A stretch of 64,000 nt of DNA from Escherichia coli (GTDB lineage Bacteria > Pseudomonadota > Gammaproteobacteria > Enterobacterales > Enterobacteriaceae): the NCBI RefSeq assembly GCF_011045215.1, contig NZ_CP049201.1, one strand, 5' to 3'. Below the pieces are notes generated by a model that saw nothing but the letters and a program-made list of their open reading frames with translations, was not told the origin of the DNA and searched no databases. Positions 11,382 through 46,699 of this stretch are shown here, one piece after another; the first letter of the stretch is position 1; the number at the start of each line of letters is the position of its first letter. The position numbers were made by a program, and so were the translations under genes.

Positions 11382-12148
<767 letters not shown>

Positions 12149-12154
12149 TACTCC

Positions 12155-13306
12155 TTACAGCATCTCAATAAAGGCCGCGACACGGGTACTGAGCTGCCCA
12201 ACATCCGAGGTGGAGTAGTCTGTTTCAATAGCGATATAAGGAATGTTGTGCTGCTGACGCACATGACGTTTAATCGCCAGCGATTCCACCGCGTAGGTAT
12301 GGCACGCCTGCAAAATCACATCAACTACGCCATCGACCTGATATTCTTCCACCATCTGGCTGAGCATTTTCAGGCGCTGATCGTTCGGCGAAACACAGGA
12401 GCAGCCAATCGCCAGATATTTATCCGCCAGCGCGTCGTAGACATCGCCCGTTTCTGCCACGCATTGCTCGGTCGCTTTCGCCCCGGTGCAGTTTTCATAA
12501 CCGACAACCCAGCCGCCATTCTCTTCAATCGCGCGCACCACTTTCTCTGCTGCGCCGCCAATCGGGCAGCCGGTGATTAAAATGCGCGGACGCGGGTCCA
12601 GTCGCTGGCCTTCTTCCCACTGCTGACGAATGCGGGCGGTCATCGCGTCCAGTTCATTGATCAACGCCTCTTTATCGAACCGGAAGGTTGCGCCGTAAAC
12701 CACTTTCAGAATGTCGCTGCCGCTAAGCGCCGGAGGATTTAACTGCCCAAGATGATAAAAATTGGCCAGTGCGCGACGTTCGCGGTTTTTCAGCGCAATG
12801 GCATCGCGCAGAGCATCTTCGCTAATCTCGTGCCCAAAACGTTTTTCTACCGTTTTTTGCAAGCGCAGCATCTCGGCTTTCCATAATGCACGCGAGGCAC
12901 CGTCCTTAACGCTGTTCGGCAACTGCATCACATGAACGGGCTTAAATTCCGCCATGTATTCATACATTTTCTTTTTGCCGTCGCAGGTGGTTTCACCGAC
13001 CACCAGATCCGAAAAGTAGAAGTAGGGGCATTTATCGGTTTTGCCAAAGCCGTAGCTGCTTTTAATCAGCGGGCAGAGGTTGCGCGGCAGATCTTTCTCC
13101 GCTTCTTCAATGGTTTCATCAGAGGTGGAACAGAGCGAAACCACAACCGCACCGGCTGCCATCGGGATCTCTTGCGGCATAAAGGTGCAGTAAGTGCCAA
13201 CCAGCGGAATGCCGCGCTCCTTGAGATCCATGACGGTGAGAAAGCCTTTCTGGCGAGCTTCAGAGAACTGATCGAAAATGGCGGGTAGATCGGTGACAAG
13301 TGACAT
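12155..13306 (-). CDS. yjiM: 2-hydroxyglutaryl-CoA dehydratase D-component-like protein
   Basis: ORF 12155..13327; start trimmed to the internal Met (MSLVTDLPAIF) to give the 383-aa length I recall for K-12 YjiM. Confidence 0.75.
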   Translation of the reverse strand: MSLVTDLPAIFDQFSEARQKGFLTVMDLKERGIPLVGTYCTFMPQEIPMAAGAVVVSLCSTSDETIEEAEKDLPRNLCPLIKSSYGFGKTDKCPYFYFSDLVVGETTCDGKKKMYEYMAEFKPVHVMQLPNSVKDGASRALWKAEMLRLQKTVEKRFGHEISEDALRDAIALKNRERRALANFYHLGQLNPPALSGSDILKVVYGATFRFDKEALINELDAMTARIRQQWEEGQRLDPRPRILITGCPIGGAAEKVVRAIEENGGWVVGYENCTGAKATEQCVAETGDVYDALADKYLAIGCSCVSPNDQRLKMLSQMVEEYQVDGVVDVILQACHTYAVESLAIKRHVRQQHNIPYIAIETDYSTSDVGQLSTRVAAFIEML

Positions 13307-13421
13307 GATTTTCCTTCCCCGTACCACGGGAGATAATGAAAAGAGGCCACATTATTACCATTCTTTTAGTATGGTTTATTTGATCTCTCTCGCGGTTAGC
13401 CACTTAGTTTTTCATGGATTT

Positions 13422-14702
13422 CTAAAAATTGCCGAGGGGGAACAAGGCCGGGAGCTGCGACAGCAAATATAAAATTAGCCCAATACAACCGCCAACCAGC
13501 GTACCGTTGACACGAATAAACTGCAGATCTTTGCCGATATTTAACTCTATTTGCCGCGACATATCCCGGGCATCCCAGCTTTTTACCGTATCGCTGATGT
13601 GGCGCGTCAGGAATGCGGAAAACTCAGGCGCGACGCGGTGCGCGGCTTGTTCCAGGTGACCATTTAACGACGCCCGCAAGGCATCATCGGCAATTAACGT
13701 TTCGCCAAACCATTGACCCGCCCGCGCGATACGTTCTTTCACACGAGAATCTTCACTGTTGATATCCGCTTTCAGCCATTCCCGTAAATCCCCCCACAAT
13801 TCACTGAGATAGCGGTTAAAGGCTTCATCCTCTTTCAGATAGCTTTTTACGGCATCAGCTCGCGCTGCCATTTCAGGATCGTTTTTCAACTTGTCGATCA
13901 GGGCAAAAGTGGCGCGATCAAACGCATGGCGGATCTGATGTGCACGATCGCGGCTGATATCGTCAAGCAAAGAATTCACCGCGTCAGAAACCAATTCCGC
14001 GCTATGTTCGCCCAGCCATTCGGTGGGGAGAATTTTGGCTTTCAGTGGATGCTCACTCTCCAGCCAGCGAACAATCTGCTGGGCGATAAACTTGCGCGAT
14101 TTATCGCGCTGGAGAAGGGCGATCAACTGTGCGATCAGCGTATCCAGCAGCACCTGATGACGATCGTTTTTGGTCATACTCTCCAGCATCAACGCACTGG
14201 TGCCGGAAAGATCGACCTTATCAATCGCCCGATGGACTGCGCGCTTAAGCAGGCGCTGAATACGCGCATCATCGGTCAGTTCAAGAAAACCACTCATGAT
14301 CTGCAACAGATGCTGACCAACGCGGCGGGCGTTTTCTGGCTGGCTAAACCAGTTGCCAATCAGCAACGCCGGTTCGTGGCGTCGAATCAATGCCACCAGC
14401 GACTGGGTATCGAGAAATTTTTCCTGCACGAACTGACCGAGATTTTCGCCAATCCGGTCTTTATTACGCGGGATAATCGCCGTATGACGAGAAATGATCG
14501 GAATCGGCACGCGGCGAAACAGCGCCACCACCGCAAACCAGTCCGCCAGCGCGCCGACCATCGCCGCTTCAGCAATCGCCTTCACGCCGCTCACCCAAAA
14601 ATTGGGCGGCAAAAACAGCGTAACGACAAAGGTAGCAGCGGCGATAAGCAGTAAAGAGAGCGCCAACATTTTGGCGCGTCTGAGTTCAATGAGTTTATTC
14701 AT
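13422..14702 (-). CDS. yjiN: DUF445-family inner membrane protein
   Basis: ORF 13422..14834; start trimmed to [19 protein letters not shown]... giving 426 aa; N-terminal TM helices. Confidence 0.75.
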
Positions 14703-14742
14703 AACGTTAAGAATAGAGCCTGACGGCAGGATCGCGCAAAAA

Positions 14743-15975
14743 TCACCGCTCCTCCGCCAGCTCGGCAGCCTGATGTTGGCGCACGCGATTAAGCAATCCG
14801 GCCAGGGTGAAAACGACGATAACGCCTGCCACAACGGCTAACAGATGAAACGGCAAGCGACCGCCGTTAAACCACAGCCAGCGGCCAATTTCGACCGAGA
14901 CAGACATCACCATCAGGATCACCATATTCAGCGATGCGGAGACGGTCCCTTTCGGTAAGTTATTGGAAAAAAGCGTAAAGCGGAATAAGGTCGGGAAGAT
15001 CAAACCAATCCCGAAAGCAAACAAACTGGTGCCCAGCACCGACCACAGCCAGACGTGCGGTGACAGCAGGTTGCCGATAATCAACAGCGCGAGGCCAACC
15101 AGTTGAATGGGTACGGCACGCCAGATAAAGCGCGGTTCGGTCGGATCTTTAACGAAACGCGCCACGATGGCATTCGCGACAATCACCGCGCCGAACACCG
15201 GAACCTGTGTCCAGGCGAACTGCGAGGTCGTTAAGCCGCCTGCGTCAATCAGGATCACCGGCGAGACAGCCACCCAACTCATCATGGGGATATAGCTTAA
15301 AGAGATGGTTGCTGCGCCAAAGAGGAACAGCCGATTGCAAAAGACATTACGAAAATCGCGCAAGACGCTTTTGGCGCTAAATGGAACCGCGCCGCGCTTC
15401 ACCGTCTCTGGCATCGCCAGCAGTAAGCCAACAAATGAGATAAAACCCATAACCGCAATGATGGCAAAAAGGACTTTCCAGTGCACAAAGTGCATCAGAG
15501 CTGCGCCGGAAAGCGGGCCAATAATCGGCGCAATCAGTACGATGGAGGTGATAATCGCCATCAACTTGATCCCTTTTGTCTGTCCGAACGCCTCCTGCAC
15601 CGTGACATAACCAACGGTAGCAATAAAACAGATACTGGTGCCCTGAATTGCACGCGCGATAAGAAACTGTGTCATAGACGTTGTGAACATTGTCGCGGCG
15701 CAGGCAAGGGTAAATATTAGCGCCCCGGTAATCAGCACCGGCCTGCGGCCAATCCTGTCGGAAAGCGGCCCCAGCAGCCACTGTAACGCCATACCGCCCG
15801 CGAGATAGAGACTGACGGCTGCCGGGGCCAGACTGACATCGGCATTAAAATCACGGACCACATTAATGATCCCCGGCTGGATCAGGTCCGTCGACAGATA
15901 GGCGGCAAAGTCATACAAAATCAACGCCATCGGGAAAAACAGCGTAGCGGCATGGCGGGCAAAAAAACGTGGCAT
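14743..15975 (-). CDS. mdtM: Multidrug efflux MFS transporter
   Basis: ORF 14743..15984; start trimmed to [23 protein letters not shown]... (410 aa), matching my memory of MdtM. Confidence 0.85.
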
Positions 15976-16441
15976 AACAAACAACTCCTTGTCCGGAGAA
16001 CCCCAACGGGGAAAACGAAATTCAATACCGTCGGTAATGACGAAAGGCAGGCGAGAAGGGCAAATGTACTGAATTTCATGTAATCAATCACACTGCCTGT
16101 GAACACACAGACAGAGAAATACCTTCTGACTCCAGGTCAGAATGTATAACGATTACAAATAGTCATCAGCACATTACACCTCTTGAATTGATGGGTTGCA
16201 TAGAAAATATACACCTTAAGTGTAATTAAAATTTGCGGTTAATCAAAAGAGCGCGGTGGAAAGGGGAATATCTGCCGGGTACAGGAAATGTAAAACGCGA
16301 GCCTGTTTCCGGAAAAATGTATCGTTTGCAGACGAACAAAAATAGCCTGGAAAGCGCCTCGGGGAACGGGAAATTGCCGGGTGAGAATGGTTTTGTTAGT
16401 CGCTAAAGTCGGGCCATCTTATCAACAGGTGACGGATCGCC

Positions 16442-17385
16442 ATGACAAACTTCACGACCAGCACGCCGCATGACGCATTATTTAAATCTTTTCTCATGCA
16501 CCCTGACACCGCGCGGGATTTTATGGAGATCCACTTACCCAAAGATTTACGTGAACTGTGCGATCTCGACAGCTTAAAACTGGAATCCGCCAGCTTTGTC
16601 GATGAAAAATTGCGGGCGCTACACTCCGATATTCTGTGGTCGGTAAAGACCCGGGAAGGCGATGGCTATATCTATGTGGTGATTGAACATCAGAGCCGTG
16701 AGGATATTCATATGGCCTTTCGCCTGATGCGCTATTCCATGGCAGTGATGCAGCGCCATATAGAGCATGATAAACGCGGTTGCTACCGCTGGTCATCCCG
16801 ATGCTGTTTTATCACGGTAGCCGTAGTCCTTATCCCTGGTCCCTGTGCTGGCTGGACGAATTTGCCGACCCGACTACTGCACGGAAAGTTTATACTGCAG
16901 CGTTCCCGCTGGTGGATGTCACTGTCGTGCCAGACGACGAGATTGTGCAGCACCGCAGAGTCGCCCTGTTGGAGTTGATCCAAAAGCATATTCGCCAGCG
17001 CGATCTGATGGGGCTTATCGATCAACTGGTAATATTACTGGTTACAGAGTGTGCTAATGACAGCCAGATAACTGCGCTGTTAAATTACATTTTACTGACT
17101 GGCGATGAAGCGCGTTTTAATGAGTTTATCAGTGAACTTACCCGTCGAATGCCACAACAAAGGGAGCGAATAATGACGATTGCAGAGCGAATTCATAATG
17201 ATGGATGGCTGTTAGGGATGGAAAAGGGGAAAGAAGAAGGGGAACAACGCCTCCTTAGATTGCTTTTGCAGAACGGTGCGGATCCTGAATGGATACAACG
17301 ATATACTGGACTTTCGGCAGAGCAAATGCAGGCATTAGAGCAACCCTTGCCTGAAAGCAAGCGCGATCCATGGATCGAGTACTAA
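16442..17385 (+). pseudogene. rpnD: Rpn (YhgA-like, transposase_31 / PD-(D/E)XK) recombination-promoting nuclease, interrupted by a frameshift
   Basis: Two overlapping ORFs (16442..16978 and 16780..17385) in different frames together span an Rpn-family protein; the N-terminal part ([19 protein letters not shown]...YVVIEHQSR) continues in the second frame ([27 protein letters not shown]) after a frame change near 16775-16800. Confidence 0.7.
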
Positions 17386-17473
17386 TCAGAGACTGATGAC
17401 AAACGCAAAGCTGCCTGATGTGCTACGCTTATCAGACCTACATTACCTCTGCAATCTATTGAATTTGCGCGAT

Positions 17474-17510
17474 TTGTAAGCCGGATAAGGCGTTCACGCC
17501 GCATCCGGTA
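17474..17510. repeat. REP (repetitive extragenic palindromic) element
   Basis: gccggataaggcgttcacgccgcatccgg-type palindrome. Confidence 0.8.
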
Positions 17511-17626: not shown

Positions 17627-19039
17627 TCATTCCATTGCCTGATACACGGCCTCGCCAATTTGCTTCAGTGCTTCGCGATAGGTTTCGCTGAGCGGCAAAG
17701 CGCAGTTGATACGTAGACAATTACGGTATTTGCCGGAAGCCGAGAAAATCGAGCCTGCCGCCACCTGGATTTTCATGCGGTACAGCTGCCGCGCGACGCA
17801 GACCATATCGACCTGTTCAGGCAATTCTATCCACAGTAAAAATCCGCCTTTCGGGCGCGTAATACAGATTTCGCAGGGAAAATATTCCCGTATCCAGCAG
17901 GTATAAAGCGCCAAATTGCGCTGATAGATCTGCCGCATCCGCCGGATATGGCGATGATAGTGACCTTCCAGCACAAACGTTGCCGCCGCCATTTGCGTGG
18001 ACGGTACATTAAAGCTGCTGATGGCGTATTTCATATGCAGCAGTTTATCGTGATAACGCCCCGGTGCGACCCAACCCACGCGCAGGCCTGGTGCAATACT
18101 TTTACTGAACGAGCTGCACAACAGCACTCGCCCGTCGATATCCCAGGAATGAATGGTCCGCGGGCGCGGATACTCCGTTGCCAGTTCGCCGTAGACATCA
18201 TCTTCAAAAATCACAATATCATGACGCTGAGCGAGAGAGAGAACGGCCCGTTTGCGCGCGTCCGGCATAATAAATCCCAGCGGATTATTACAGTTTGGCA
18301 CCAGAATGATGCCTTTAATCGGCCACTGTTCCAGCGCCAGTTCCAGCGCTTCAACGCTGATGCCTGTTTCTGGATCGGTTGGGATTTCAATCACTTTCAC
18401 GCCCATGCCGCGCAGCATCTGCATCGAACCGTAATAACAGGGGGATTCGACCGCGACAATATCGCCCGGTTTACACACCGCCATTAACGCCAGCGACATC
18501 GAGTTATGGCAGCCGCTGGTGATAATGATGTCATCGGCGGTGACCACCGAGCCGCTGTCGAGCATCAGGCGGGCAATCTGCTCTCGCAACACTCGCTGAC
18601 CGGCTAACAAGTCATAACCGAGAACGGTTTGTAGATTATGCTGCACCACCCGGCTTAGCTCCCGCCAGAGTGGTTTCAGGCTGGGCGTTTCGACATCCGG
18701 CGTGCTTTTGCTTAACGGAACAATGGAACTGTCGCTATGCGCCTCCAGCATATCCAGTACCTGATCCCACTGAGTAATTTCCACCGGGCGCTGCACCGGA
18801 CGCGTCATCGGCGGCACTGGCGGTTGGGCTTTCCGTTGTGCGACAAAATAACCCGAACGCGGCTGCGGAGTGATGAGCTTCATCGTCTCCAGCGTCTGGT
18901 ACGCCTGCTGCACGGTGCTGATGCTGACGCCGTGCTCCTGACTTAAGCTGCGCACCGACGGCAATTTCTCCCCGTGACGATACAGCCCTTGCTCAATCCG
19001 CTCGGCAAGTAGAGTCGCCAGATGTTGATAACGCGTCAT
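17627..19039 (-). CDS. yjiR: MocR-type regulator (GntR-family HTH fused to PLP-dependent aminotransferase-like domain)
   Basis: 470-aa ORF; N-terminal wHTH, C-terminal fold-type I aminotransferase-like region; synteny. Confidence 0.85.
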   Translation of the reverse strand: MTRYQHLATLLAERIEQGLYRHGEKLPSVRSLSQEHGVSISTVQQAYQTLETMKLITPQPRSGYFVAQRKAQPPVPPMTRPVQRPVEITQWDQVLDMLEAHSDSSIVPLSKSTPDVETPSLKPLWRELSRVVQHNLQTVLGYDLLAGQRVLREQIARLMLDSGSVVTADDIIITSGCHNSMSLALMAVCKPGDIVAVESPCYYGSMQMLRGMGVKVIEIPTDPETGISVEALELALEQWPIKGIILVPNCNNPLGFIMPDARKRAVLSLAQRHDIVIFEDDVYGELATEYPRPRTIHSWDIDGRVLLCSSFSKSIAPGLRVGWVAPGRYHDKLLHMKYAISSFNVPSTQMAAATFVLEGHYHRHIRRMRQIYQRNLALYTCWIREYFPCEICITRPKGGFLLWIELPEQVDMVCVARQLYRMKIQVAAGSIFSASGKYRNCLRINCALPLSETYREALKQIGEAVYQAME

Positions 19040-19477: not shown

Positions 19478-21571
19478 ATGAAAGCCACAGAGGCTCGCCT
19501 ACTCGATTTTTTAAAACGTTCGCAGCAGTTTGTTATTCCCATTTATCAACGCACTTATTCATGGACCGGGCAACAATGTCGGCAACTTTGGGACGACATC
19601 ATTCGTGCCGGAAAGCGTGACGATATATCAGCACATTTTATCGGTTCGGTTGTTTATATAGAGCAGGGATTGTATCAGGTTTCTGGTATTTCTCCGTTGC
19701 TGGTCATTGATGGTCAGCAGCGGCTGACGACCGCAATGTTGCTGATTGAGGCTTTATCGCGCCATCTTGGCGAAGACGAAGTTTTTGATGGCTTTTCGGC
19801 AATGAAATTGCGTAATTATTATTTGCTCAATCCTTATGAGTCCGGCGAGAAAGGTTTTAAATTACTGCTGACCGAGACTGATAAAGACAGTTTACTGGCG
19901 TTAATAAAACAAAGACCAATGCCAGAAAACTATTCCCATCGAATAATGGAAAACTTTACTTTCTTTGATGAACAAATTGCCAAACTCGGTGATGACTTGA
20001 TCCCCTTATGTCGTGGGTTAGCAAAGTTATTAATTGTCGATGTGGCGCTTAATCGTGGTCAGGATAATCCGCAACTGATTTTTGAAAGTATGAACTCTAC
20101 CGGTAAGGCGTTAAGTCAGGCCGATCTGGTGCGCAATTTTATTCTGATGGGCCTCGAACCAGAGCATCAAACCCGGTTGTATGAAGATCACTGGCGTCCA
20201 ATGGAAGTCGCTTTTGGTCAGCAAGGTTACAGCGAATATTTTGACAGTTTTATGCGTCATTATCTGACGGTAAAAACGGGGGAGATCCCTCGGACAGATG
20301 AAGTCTATGAGGCATTTAAACTCCATGCCCGCAGCCAGCGTGTTGCTGAAAAAGGCGTAGATCGGCTGGTTGAAGATATTCACATCTACGCGGAGTATTA
20401 CTGTGCAATGGCATTGGGAAAAGAAAGTGACAAATCGCTTGCTACGGCTTTTCAGGATTTGCGCGAGTTAAAGGTCGATGTGGCGTATCCTTTCTTACTG
20501 GCGCTTTATCATGACTATAAAAATGACGATTTGTCTCACGAAGATTTCCTGAGCATAATTCGTTTAATTGAATCTTATGTTTTCCGCCGTGCAGTATGTG
20601 CAATTCCGACAAATTCTTTGAACAAGACATTTGCCACTTTTTATAAAGTTATTAATAAAGAAAATTATCTGGAAAGTATTCAGGTACATTTTTTGAATCT
20701 ACCTTCATATCGTCGTTTCCCCAACGATGATGAATTTAAACGGGAATTAAAAGTTCGCGATCTCTATAACTTCCGCAGTCGCAGCTACTGGTTACGACGA
20801 CTGGAAAACGATAAACGCAGAGAGCGCGTAGAAGAGTTTACTATTGAGCATATTATGCCGCAGAACGAAAATTTGTCGGCTAAATGGCGTGAAGAGCTGG
20901 GAAGTGACTGGCAACGCATTCATAAAGAATTATTGCATACGTTGGGGGATCTCACTTTAACGCGCTATAACTCCCGCTACAGTGACAGACCTTTCGCGGA
21001 AAAACGCGATATTGAAGACGGCTTTAAACATAGCCCGCTCTATTTGAATATCGGTCTTGGACAGTGCGAAAAATGGGATGAAGCCGCCATTCATGCCCGA
21101 GCCGATCGTCTGGCCGATCTCGCGGTTCAGGTCTGGCAAGCGCCTTCTCTTCCTGAAGAGGTTTTGGCTGTTTATCGGGGACAGCCTGAAAACAAAACCA
21201 GTTACAGCCTGAGTGATTATCCTTTTCTTGCTGATGGTTCGCATAGCCGGGTGTTATTCGATCATCTTCGCGATGAAGTTATGCGCCTGGACGCAGGGAT
21301 CACGCAGGAAGTATTGAAGCTATATATTGCGTTTAAAGCTGAAACGAATTTTGTTGATGTTGTGCCGCAAAAAAGCCGACTGCGATTGTCGCTTAATATG
21401 CAGTTTCATGAACTGGTCGATCCGAAAGGTATTGCCAAAGATGTGACAAATGTTGGGCGCTGGGGCAATGGCGATGTGGAAATTGGTTTCAGTGACCTCG
21501 CACAACTTCCTTACGTTATGGGATTAATTCGTCAGGCATTTGAAAAACAGATGGAGAGCGCGTTGGTCTAA
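19478..21571 (+). CDS. DUF262 (ParB-like NTPase) / DUF1524 (His-Me finger) fusion nuclease, GmrSD-family-like; candidate type IV (modification-dependent) restriction enzyme
   Basis: 697-aa ORF. N-terminal motifs IPIYQRTYSW, LVIDGQQRLTT and FESMNSTGKALSQADLVRNF are DUF262 hallmarks; C-terminal half contains EHIMPQ and GDLTLT (DUF1524-like), followed by a ~170-aa tail with no motif I recognise. Occupies the position of mcrBC in the K-12 immigration control region. Confidence 0.75.
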   Translation: MKATEARLLDFLKRSQQFVIPIYQRTYSWTGQQCRQLWDDIIRAGKRDDISAHFIGSVVYIEQGLYQVSGISPLLVIDGQQRLTTAMLLIEALSRHLGEDEVFDGFSAMKLRNYYLLNPYESGEKGFKLLLTETDKDSLLALIKQRPMPENYSHRIMENFTFFDEQIAKLGDDLIPLCRGLAKLLIVDVALNRGQDNPQLIFESMNSTGKALSQADLVRNFILMGLEPEHQTRLYEDHWRPMEVAFGQQGYSEYFDSFMRHYLTVKTGEIPRTDEVYEAFKLHARSQRVAEKGVDRLVEDIHIYAEYYCAMALGKESDKSLATAFQDLRELKVDVAYPFLLALYHDYKNDDLSHEDFLSIIRLIESYVFRRAVCAIPTNSLNKTFATFYKVINKENYLESIQVHFLNLPSYRRFPNDDEFKRELKVRDLYNFRSRSYWLRRLENDKRRERVEEFTIEHIMPQNENLSAKWREELGSDWQRIHKELLHTLGDLTLTRYNSRYSDRPFAEKRDIEDGFKHSPLYLNIGLGQCEKWDEAAIHARADRLADLAVQVWQAPSLPEEVLAVYRGQPENKTSYSLSDYPFLADGSHSRVLFDHLRDEVMRLDAGITQEVLKLYIAFKAETNFVDVVPQKSRLRLSLNMQFHELVDPKGIAKDVTNVGRWGNGDVEIGFSDLAQLPYVMGLIRQAFEKQMESALV

Positions 21572-21617: not shown

Positions 21618-21959
21618 TCAGGCAACTTTCTGTTTACCCGCAATCACTCCAATAAACTCCTGCACCTGCTTTTGTTTACGTGCCGACAGTTTGCACACCT
21701 GGCGTAGCGACTGCATCAGTTCGCTCTCTTCGGCGGTGGGTGGTTGGGCGGTGAGGACAATACAGCCTTCCATCACTTTGACATCTACCGCCGTGCCGGT
21801 GGCAAAACCGGCGGCTTCCAGCCACTGACCTTTCAGGGTGATGGCGGGAATACGGCTGTAATCCGGGTAGCGACTCGCATAACTCACGGTTAATTGACGG
21901 TTATTTGCCGGGGAGACTTCTGCTTCGAACGGTTGTGCAATAGAATGCGTGTCAGTCAT
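21618..21959 (-). CDS. symE: SOS-induced toxin-like protein SymE (type I TA system toxin)
   Basis: ORF 21618..22016 trimmed to [34 protein letters not shown]... (113 aa), matching my memory of SymE. Confidence 0.85.
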
Positions 21960-22030
21960 AACTGCTATTCTCCGATAATAGTGATTGTGATTAGCGGTGC
22001 GGGTGTGTTGGCGCACATCCGCACCGCGCT
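21954..22030 (+). ncRNA. symR: Probable SymR antisense sRNA overlapping the symE translation start (coordinates approximate)
   Basis: From established knowledge SymR is cis-encoded opposite the symE 5' end; a stem-loop (gcggtgcgg...ccgcaccgc) at ~21994-22030 on the plus strand could be its 3' structure. Ends not determined. Confidence 0.35.
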
Positions 22031-28925: not shown

Positions 28926-29839
28926 ATGACGGTTCCTACCTATGACAAATTTATTGAACCTGTTCTGCGTTATCTGGCGACAAAACCGGAAGGTGCAGCC
29001 GCGCGTGATGTTCATGAGGCTGCCGCGGATGCATTAGGACTGGATGACAGCCAGCGAGCGAAAGTCATTACCAGCGGACAACTTGTTTATAAAAATCGTG
29101 CAGGCTGGGCGCATGACCGTTTAAAACGTGCCGGGTTGTCGCAAAGTTTGTCGCGTGGCAAATGGTGCCTGACTCCTGCGGGTTTTGACTGGGTTGCGTC
29201 TCATCCCCAGCCAATGACGGAGCAGGAGACGAACCATCTGGCCTTCGATTTTGTGAATGTCAAACTTAAGTCACGGCCGGATGCCGTCGATTTAGATCCG
29301 AAAGCCGACTCTCCCGATCATGAAGAACTTGCAAAGAGCAGCCCGGACGATCGGTTAGATCAGGCGCTAAAAGAGCTTCGTGATGCGGTGGCTGATGAGG
29401 TTCTGGAAAACTTATTGCAGGTTTCTCCTTCGCGCTTTGAAGTCATTGTTCTGGATGTTTTGCATCGCCTGGGGTATGGCGGCCACCGTGATGATTTGCA
29501 GCGTGTTGGCGGTACTGGAGATGGTGGCATCGATGGTGTGATATCGCTTGATAAACTTGGCCTGGAGAAAGTTTATGTTCAGGCAAAACGTTGGCGAACA
29601 CTGTAGGCAGGCCAGAATTACAGGCATTTTACGGCGCACTGGCTGGGCAAAAGGCGAAACGTGGGGTGTTTATTACCACTTCTGGATTTACGTCTCAGGC
29701 GCGTGACTTTGCTCAATCCGTCGAGGGTATGGTGTTGGTTGATGGGGAACGCCTGGTGCACTTAATGATCGAAAACGAAGTAGGGGTTTCTTCACGTTTG
29801 TTGAAGGTGCCGAAACTGGATATGGACTATTTTGAGTGA
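28926..29839 (+). pseudogene. mrr: Mrr modification-dependent restriction endonuclease, apparently frameshifted
   Basis: Two ORFs (28926..29606, 226 aa; 29591..29839, 82 aa) in different frames jointly cover a ~304-aa Mrr; the frame changes near 29595-29606 inside the catalytic domain (…VQAKRW then stop, versus ANTVGRPELQAFYGAL… in the other frame). Confidence 0.7.
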
Positions 29840-45025: not shown

Positions 45026-46699
45026 ATGTTAAAACGTATCAAGATCGTGACCAGCTTACTGCTGGTTTTGGCCGTTTTTGGCCTTTTACAACTGACATCA
45101 GGCGGTCTGTTCTTTAATGCCTTAAAGAATGACAAAGAAAATTTCACTGTTTTACAAACCATTCGCCAGCAGCAATCTACGCTGAATGGCAGCTGGGTCG
45201 CGTTGTTGCAGACGCGTAACACCCTCAACCGCGCGGGTATCCGCTACATGATGGATCAGAATAATATTGGTAGCGGTTCAACCGTTGCTGAGCTGATGCA
45301 GAGTGCCAGTATTTCGCTGAAACAGGCGGAAAAAAACTGGGCAGATTACGAAGCGTTGCCGCGTGACCCGCGTCAGAGCACCGCCGCAGCGGCAGAGATC
45401 AAACGTAATTACGATATTTATCACAATGCGCTGGCGGAGCTGATCCAACTGTTAGGTGCAGGCAAAATCAACGAGTTCTTTGATCAGCCGACCCAGGGAT
45501 ATCAGGACGGTTTCGAGAAGCAGTATGTGGCTTACATGGAGCAAAACGATCGGCTCTATGATATCGCCGTCAGCGATAACAATGCCTCCTACAGCCAGGC
45601 GATGTGGATTCTGGTGGGCGTGATGATCGTCGTACTGGCGGTCATCTTCGCCGTCTGGTTCGGTATTAAAGCCTCGCTGGTAGCGCCAATGAATCGCCTG
45701 ATTGACAGCATTCGTCATATTGCAGGCGGCGATCTGGTGAAACCGATTGAGGTGGATGGCTCTAATGAGATGGGGCAACTGGCAGAGAGTTTGCGCCATA
45801 TGCAGGGAGAGCTGATGCGTACCGTCGGTGATGTGCGCAACGGGGCCAATGCCATCTATAGCGGTGCCAGCGAAATCGCTACCGGCAATAACGATCTCTC
45901 TTCGCGCACCGAGCAACAGGCCGCTTCGCTGGAAGAGACGGCAGCCAGCATGGAGCAACTGACCGCAACGGTGAAACAGAACGCCGAGAATGCGCGCCAG
46001 GCCAGCCACCTGGCGTTAAGTGCTTCTGAAACGGCGCAACGCGGCGGCAAAGTGGTAGATAACGTGGTGCAGACTATGCGTGATATCTCCACCAGTTCGC
46101 AGAAAATCGCCGATATTATCAGCGTAATTGACGGCATTGCCTTCCAGACCAATATTCTGGCTTTGAACGCGGCGGTTGAAGCAGCGCGTGCGGGTGAGCA
46201 AGGACGTGGTTTTGCGGTGGTTGCGGGAGAAGTGCGTAATCTGGCCCAGCGTAGCGCCCAGGCGGCTCGTGAAATTAAAAGCCTGATTGAAGACTCGGTG
46301 GGGAAAGTGGATGTTGGCTCTACGCTGGTCGAAAGCGCCGGGGAAACAATGGCGGAGATTGTCAGCGCCGTGACCCGCGTGACGGACATTATGGGCGAAA
46401 TTGCTTCTGCTTCTGATGAGCAGAGCCGTGGTATCGATCAGGTTGGCTTAGCGGTTGCTGAGATGGACCGGGTAACTCAACAGAACGCCGCGCTGGTGGA
46501 AGAATCTGCCGCTGCCGCCGCCGCGCTGGAAGAGCAGGCCAGTCGCCTGACCGAAGCTGTGGCAGTGTTCCGGATTCAGCAACAGCAGCAACAGCAGCAA
46601 CAGCAGCGTGAAACATCGGCTGTGGTAAAAACCGTGACGCCAGCTACGCCGCGTAAAATGGCAGTGGCAGATAGCGGGGAGAACTGGGAAACGTTTTAA
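45026..46699 (+). CDS. tsr: Methyl-accepting chemotaxis protein I (serine chemoreceptor)
   Basis: 557-aa ORF with periplasmic domain, HAMP, methylation helices and C-terminal NWETF pentapeptide; contains a 10-Gln tract. Confidence 0.9.
46577..46606 (+). repeat. CAG/CAA trinucleotide repeat encoding Q10 in the Tsr C-terminal linker
   Basis: cagcaacagcagcaacagcagcaacagcag read directly. Confidence 0.9.

Follow-up and report, generated by a model that had tools for sequence, protein, structure and literature searches.

An apparently private one-base deletion in the Rpn-family gene rpnD of an Escherichia coli genome, with the embedded small-protein frame left intact

The rpnD locus

The stretch of DNA analysed here, referred to throughout as the window, comprises 64,000 nucleotides of an Escherichia coli genome (contig NZ_CP049201.1). 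Two overlapping open reading frames (ORFs) on its plus strand, 16442..16978 (178 aa) and 16780..17385 (201 aa), were found to be the halves of one Rpn-family gene (Table 1). The first of them follows the native sequence up to ...HIEHDKRG and afterwards continues into a tail without similarity to anything. The division is seen most directly in the domain matches: against the 203-position profile of Pfam Transposase_31 (PF04754, YhgA-like), ORF 16442..16978 covers positions 1-106 (E 2e-47) and ORF 16780..17385 covers positions 108-202 (E 4e-32), while the protein obtained by repairing the frame aligns with the same profile end to end, residues 8-210 on positions 1-202 of 203, with 288.6 bits. 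The repaired protein also scored 171.7 bits against TIGR01784, the NCBIfam model of the Rpn subfamily (cut-off 52.1), and matched the RpnA model in one stretch, from residue 3 to residue 300. With its 314 residues it is present as an exact database entry on 16 contigs, the chromosome of strain A30 among them.

The locus is flanked by mdtM upstream and yjiR downstream, and the same neighbours are found in A30, K-12 and 1504D004. It is from this synteny, together with the matches to PF04754 and TIGR01784, that the gene is identified as rpnD (the yjiP/yjiQ locus), predicted to encode an Rpn-family PD-(D/E)XK nuclease/toxin. The sequence-only reading, made before any database was searched, had already given the gene this name and had placed a switch of frame at 16770-16800; the identification was borne out, the coordinates proved correct, and the split into two ORFs was upheld by the domain halves, by tblastn and by alignment to intact orthologues. 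A split of this pattern lies far beyond chance. The family has been annotated as “putative transposase”, and a section heading in PMC10400941 states that Rpn proteins are not conventional transposases.

The PD-(D/E)XK residues and the PDDEI motif are separated by the break. Mutation of D11, D63, E82, Q84 or R94 abolishes or alters the activity of RpnA (PMC5350276), and in the translation of ORF 16442..16978 all five of these core catalytic residues are read at the same numbering, still encoded before the break. The PDDEI motif, in the form VVPDDEIV, is carried by ORF 16780..17385, and the catalytic residues and the motif are now in different frames.

Table 1. Coordinates of features at the rpnD locus, numbered from the first nucleotide of the window
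Feature	Position	Strand	Remarks
ORFs flanking rpnD	14743..15984 and 17627..19039	both -	synteny
rpnD 5' part	16442..16777	+	native codons 1-112; holds the PD-(D/E)XK residues
TAA stop in the downstream (-1) frame	16771..16773	+	closes the -1 frame just upstream of the lesion
Lesion, one C of a CC pair missing	16777..16778	+	from alignment to intact orthologues; intact AAA CGC CGG TTG, window AAA CGC GGT TGC
rpnD 3' part	16777..17385	+	native codons 113-314, -1 frame; mechanical ORF starts at TTG 16780
Out-of-frame tail of the truncated product	16778..16978	+	about 65-66 missense codons, then TGA stop
Promoter-like ATGACA-18-TAAATT, TG before the second hexamer	17057..17086	+	9 of 12 positions match; weak internal-promoter candidate
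Shine-Dalgarno-like AAGGGAG	17160..17166	+	6 nt upstream of internal ATG 17173; candidate RpnD_S start
rpnD_S ORF, 70 aa, ...WIEY	17173..17385	+	intact; in frame with the native C-terminus; predicted antitoxin/small protein
Length-polymorphic G-x-x-x four-residue units	17207..17230	+	alleles of 921, 945 and 957 nt; steps of 12 or 24 nt

Several other features of the window were recorded. An intact 697-aa GmrSD-type restriction enzyme with GmrSD_N, GmrSD_C and DUF5655 domains is encoded at 19478-21571 (+); for the corresponding region, the annotation of 1504D004, the nearest complete genome, has a partial DUF262 pseudogene and a separate GmrSD gene. The SymR antitoxin sRNA was located at 21954-22030 (+) (Rfam RF01809, 90.9 bits), adjoining the symE position of the 1504D004 annotation. 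Towards the far end of the window, an Rfam tRNA match at 59471-59554 (-) has its counterpart in the tRNA-Leu of the PapRG-06-5 annotation, and Rfam also matched an naRNA4 element at 59694-59776 (+).

A single-nucleotide deletion in rpnD

Comparison with intact genes located the cause of the split in the loss of one C between 16777 and 16778, by which AAACGCCGGTTG became AAACGCGGTTG; when the window is aligned to intact orthologues, the base that is gone proves to be one of the CC in AAACGCCGG. A single gap is seen against A30, LR14 and K-12, the intact genes reading GATAAACGCCGGTTG and the window GATAAACGCGGTTG. When the repaired protein was searched by tblastn, residues 1-112 were found at 16442-16777 and residues 113-314 at 16777-17382, in adjacent frames, and the two pieces, both 100% identical to the query, had one nucleotide in common, a pattern characteristic of a 1-nt deletion. 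This one 1-nt gap is not divisible by three, and the window is otherwise collinear with the intact orthologues.

A close intact counterpart is the RpnD of E. coli A30 and its relatives (WP_218076203.1-type, 314 aa): once the C is restored, the protein is identical, and the DNA is 99.8% identical over 1.2 kb. Over the 6.1 kb that the window and A30 have in common, the deletion is the sole indel within a gene, and rpnD has just one further difference. Genomes of the A30 type carry CGCCGG and a single ORF of 945 nt, whereas in the window a C is missing and two ORFs result. The account that best fits these comparisons, to which a probability of about 0.9 may be given, is that rpnD has been inactivated by a recent and private deletion of this one C. 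A genuine pseudogene had been one of the two alternatives put forward from the sequence, and the 1-nt deletion relative to intact orthologues supports it.

Is the deletion real?

The deletion is exceedingly rare. Of the 5,426 complete RefSeq E. coli genomes, 4,246 have the locus, and the 81-nt junction is matched exactly in none of the 5,426; 24 complete genomes, the best matches, are identical but for the extra C (82 nt in the record, 98.8%). The junction was likewise absent from 100,044 GTDB species-representative genomes in an exact-pattern scan, and neither the 178-aa nor the 201-aa ORF product had an exact entry in a collection of 15 billion proteins. The 194-aa product that begins at ATG 16801 occurs once in that collection, on a Logan contig of SRA run SRR11014969, a run for which a literature search gave no match. 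This contig, SRR11014969_113, matches the window from 11801 to 17509 (5.7 kb) at 100% identity and without gaps, deletion included. Logan is a k-mer assembly built directly from SRA reads, and the reads of that run therefore contain the deletion, so that neither the assembler nor polishing can have produced it, with the qualification that the Logan assembly may derive from the same reads as the source assembly of the window, in which case a systematic read error would persist. An intact ORF recovered by resequencing had been proposed as the observation that would speak against a frameshift; no intact ORF was seen, and the proposal is answered in part, the read source being possibly shared.

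The alternative that the rpnD of this genome is intact and the missing C a base-calling or polishing error would account for the loss of a single base in a 2-base homopolymer, for a deletion unique to the window sequence, and for the presence of a second private 1-bp deletion 12.8 kb away. This second deletion is the only other frameshifting indel in the first 35 kb of the window and lies at 29596 in mrr, the gene of the Mrr restriction endonuclease (28926-29606, +), where TGGCAGAAC became TGGCGAAC; it, too, is found in 0 of the 5,426 complete genomes, 950 of which have the extra base. Against an error stands the exact reproduction of both deletions in the k-mer assembly of SRR11014969, the mrr deletion being carried by contig SRR11014969_148 of the same run. 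Furthermore, no frameshifting indel was found in 32 further genes between 30.8 and 64 kb, among them dnaC, dnaT, opgB, rsmC and prfC, when they were compared with relatives at 98-98.7% identity, so that indel noise is not a trait of the window sequence. For a set of about 55 genes, a count of two pseudogenes is within what is usual in E. coli annotation. A 9-bp insertion in tsr at 46577-46585, relative to strain PapRG-06-5, is in frame. An artefact is thus improbable, and the absence of the deletion from 5,426 genomes, taken with its reproduction by Logan, makes it most likely that the deletion is a real mutation private to this isolate.

Predicted products of the two frames

Translation from ATG 16442 would yield 112 native residues followed by 66 missense residues. 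With 202 of the 314 residues lost, the resulting 178-aa product would stop short of completing the nuclease core and would have neither the conserved PDDEI segment nor the C-terminal domain. In the delimitation of Kingston et al. (PMC5350276), the nuclease core stops about 81 residues short of where Transposase_31 ends, a boundary that corresponds to roughly residue 129 of RpnD; the break falls at codon 113. From the loss of the end of the core, the PDDEI segment and the C-terminal domain we infer that the 178-aa product is inactive and that the long toxic form, RpnD_L, is null.

The fate of the 3' part depends on whether translation can begin near the junction. No Shine-Dalgarno sequence was found before TTG 16780 or before ATG 16801, and translation of the 201-aa ORF in that form is therefore improbable; the 3' part would lack a usable start at the junction, and no 201-aa protein would be made. 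The same observation bears on the idea of a functional split gene, in which the N-terminal fragment and a separately initiated C-terminal fragment of 194 or 201 aa would come together again as an active nuclease. Apart from the deletion, neither half is damaged, and the 194-aa ORF from ATG 16801 is the one chosen by a gene caller, but with neither start preceded by a Shine-Dalgarno sequence, with the break lying within the core boundaries set by Kingston et al., and with the arrangement private to one isolate, such a reassembly is highly improbable.

Programmed frameshifting

The other alternative offered by the sequence-only reading was that the junction might be a candidate for programmed frameshifting. 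A -1 ribosomal frameshift of the kind used by IS1 and IS3 transposases would then give some full-length RpnD, and there is a likeness to these elements in that two frames overlap, here from 16774 to 16978, and their fusion would give a full-length protein; -1 is moreover the right direction, and the family has been annotated as “putative transposase”. The likeness does not extend to the elements on which IS3/IS1-type frameshifting relies, the rpnD junction having neither a slippery heptamer nor a stimulatory structure, and its shift not being conserved.

A slippery heptamer at the junction had been suggested as a check, and no in-frame X XXY YYZ heptamer is present in the overlap 16774-16978. 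The TAA codon of the -1 frame (Table 1) limits any slip that would restore the protein to 16774-16779, and so to the codons CGC and GGT (16775-16780), where re-pairing of the tRNA from CGC to ACG is not slippery. Half-canonical heptamers (for example, A AAG TTT at 16885) were all found downstream, where a shift would not restore conserved sequence. The search for a stable stimulatory RNA structure, which would have to lie 5-9 nt downstream, was equally negative: the 116 nt from 16765 to 16880 fold with a minimum free energy of -28 kcal/mol, compared with a mean of -29.8 for shuffled sequences (z = +0.55, for pseudoknot-free folds), which is no better than the shuffles. There is also no A/T run that would serve transcriptional slippage.

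The most decisive argument is that the shift is not conserved among orthologues. It occurs in 0 of the 5,426 complete genomes and in none of the GTDB representatives, and outside the window it is found in one SRA run only; the orthologues carry the additional base and read through in one frame, and in 11 of 14 sampled genomes the gene is a single ORF. Programmed recoding can on these grounds be regarded as excluded for practical purposes, and the candidate frameshift site is better read as what the alignment shows, a one-base deletion.

The embedded small-protein gene

The rpn genes are known to encode a second, shorter protein. Ribo-RET located internal, in-frame starts in each of the five rpn genes, among them rpnD (bioRxiv 10.1101/520783), and Zhong et al. 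(PMC10400941) describe the detection of all five Rpn small proteins, the confirmation of internal starts by tagging and the finding, for the rpn genes of K-12, that RpnS keeps its RpnL from being toxic and from cleaving DNA.

In the window, the counterpart of this internal gene is undisturbed. About 400 nt separate the frameshift from ATG 17173, the internal start downstream of it; that start is untouched, and the antitoxin-like small protein can therefore still be encoded. The core GAGCG and the internal ATG were kept in 15 of 15 alleles, and the RpnD_S of the window is identical to that of the A30, LR14 and 1504D004 alleles. By extrapolation from the K-12 experiments, which were done on a different allele, it is probable that the isolate can still produce RpnD_S, which the published Rpn model casts as the cognate antitoxin. 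Few similarities could be attached to the 70-aa protein itself: the crystal chain of RpnA_S (7th0) gave a weak match, with E 0.3, and a Pfam search returned no significant family.

The C-terminal domain of RpnD varies among strains in its GxxxGxxx segment, the variants of which include GWLLGRERGRKEGKVEGERS. Zhong et al. [quoted passage not shown] The promoter-like sequence listed in Table 1 was one of 3 such sites found in the region, where 2.2 were expected from shuffled sequences, and there is no enrichment. Repeat and Rfam scans around rpnD gave nothing relevant.

Compared with the intragenic RpnL/RpnS toxin-antitoxin pairs described in PMC10400941, the window's rpnD is alike at the sequence level in its PD-(D/E)XK long form, its internal ribosome-binding site and ATG, and its C-terminal variation by four-residue units. 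The difference is that the toxin frame is broken in the window, so that at most the antitoxin half remains. In outcome this resembles the stand-alone RpnS genes (ypaA/RpnE_Ss); in origin it does not.

rpnD lesions in K-12 and other strains

The split had been likened to the yjiP/yjiQ pair of K-12, and here the locus was right and the lesion wrong. In K-12, a CAG codon about 25 nt upstream of the position of the window's deletion has become an in-frame amber codon, TAG, without any indel (ATGCAGCGC to ATGTAGCGC), while the window has CAG at this site. A glnV(supE) suppressor host would put Gln at the TAG and restore the ancestral residue. The K-12 rpnD is annotated in RefSeq as a pseudogene with the note “internal stop”, whereas Kingston et al. 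2017 treated it as an active 921-nt gene and never mentioned a stop codon, an amber codon or a pseudogene (PMC5350276); the TAG (record L002, at about 3454) is the point on which the annotation and the treatment of the gene as active differ.

The two alleles have in common the position between mdtM and yjiR, the interruption of Transposase_31 in mid-domain, and an intact internal start and small-protein ORF. They differ in distribution, the exact K-12 81-mer with the amber codon being present in 339 complete genomes and the window's frameshift in none. They are also of different classes, the repaired window being of the 945-nt (314-aa) type and K-12 of the 921-nt (306-aa) type, and at the locus the DNA of the window and of K-12 is 91.2% identical; from this identity, and as the window is not K-12, it follows that the two lesions arose independently. 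That the window simply has the pseudogene that K-12 inherited, as shared locus and synteny and two lesions merely about 25 nt apart might suggest, can accordingly be dismissed outright in view of the retained CAG, the lack of an indel in K-12 and the distinct allele class.

Further lesions were encountered when 14 genomes were sampled across the range of identity, in 11 of which rpnD is intact as a single ORF. The rpnD of 1504D004 has a different 1-bp deletion, at the window equivalent of 16668 (record position 17717), and is annotated as “frameshifted”; this deletion is common to three genomes, 1504D004, 1604D011 and ES5. In O157:H7 strain F8952, a 25-bp tandem duplication (ATGACGATTGCAGAGCGAATTCATA, record 970-1019) starts exactly at the internal ATG (window equivalent about 17173). 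It frameshifts the long protein, and its second copy recreates an intact small-protein ORF of 66 aa. By alignment, then, rpnD_L is seen to be broken in at least four independent ways in E. coli: by the K-12 amber codon, by two 1-bp deletions and by the 25-bp duplication.

Significance

The deletion is an ordinary, recent loss-of-function mutation in a well-described family, and no new mechanism is required to explain it. That rpnD can be a pseudogene was already known at this locus from K-12, through another mutation. The correct label for the gene in the window is a frameshifted rpnD pseudogene, and it is neither a recoding site nor the K-12 allele; beyond this correction of the annotation, the significance of the finding is small.

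A broader interpretation may be considered, namely that rpnD loss reflects recurrent selection against self-damaging nucleases, with the antitoxin being kept, rather than neutral decay, and that the frameshift in mrr is due to the same pressure. Each of the four rpnD_L lesions known here leaves an RpnD_S ORF available, and the break in mrr comes directly after the QAKRW motif, cutting Mrr_cat at profile position 58 of 115. Given four lesions in a gene of which about 78% belongs to the long form alone, the pattern is statistically indistinguishable from chance, and the interpretation is on balance unlikely. If it were true, the surviving rpnD_S would be an orphan antitoxin that might act, for example, against incoming Rpn toxins. 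The repeated and independent disabling of rpnD with its embedded small-protein gene left intact is a pattern that could be surveyed across genomes, and the published toxin-antitoxin model could be put to the test in this way.
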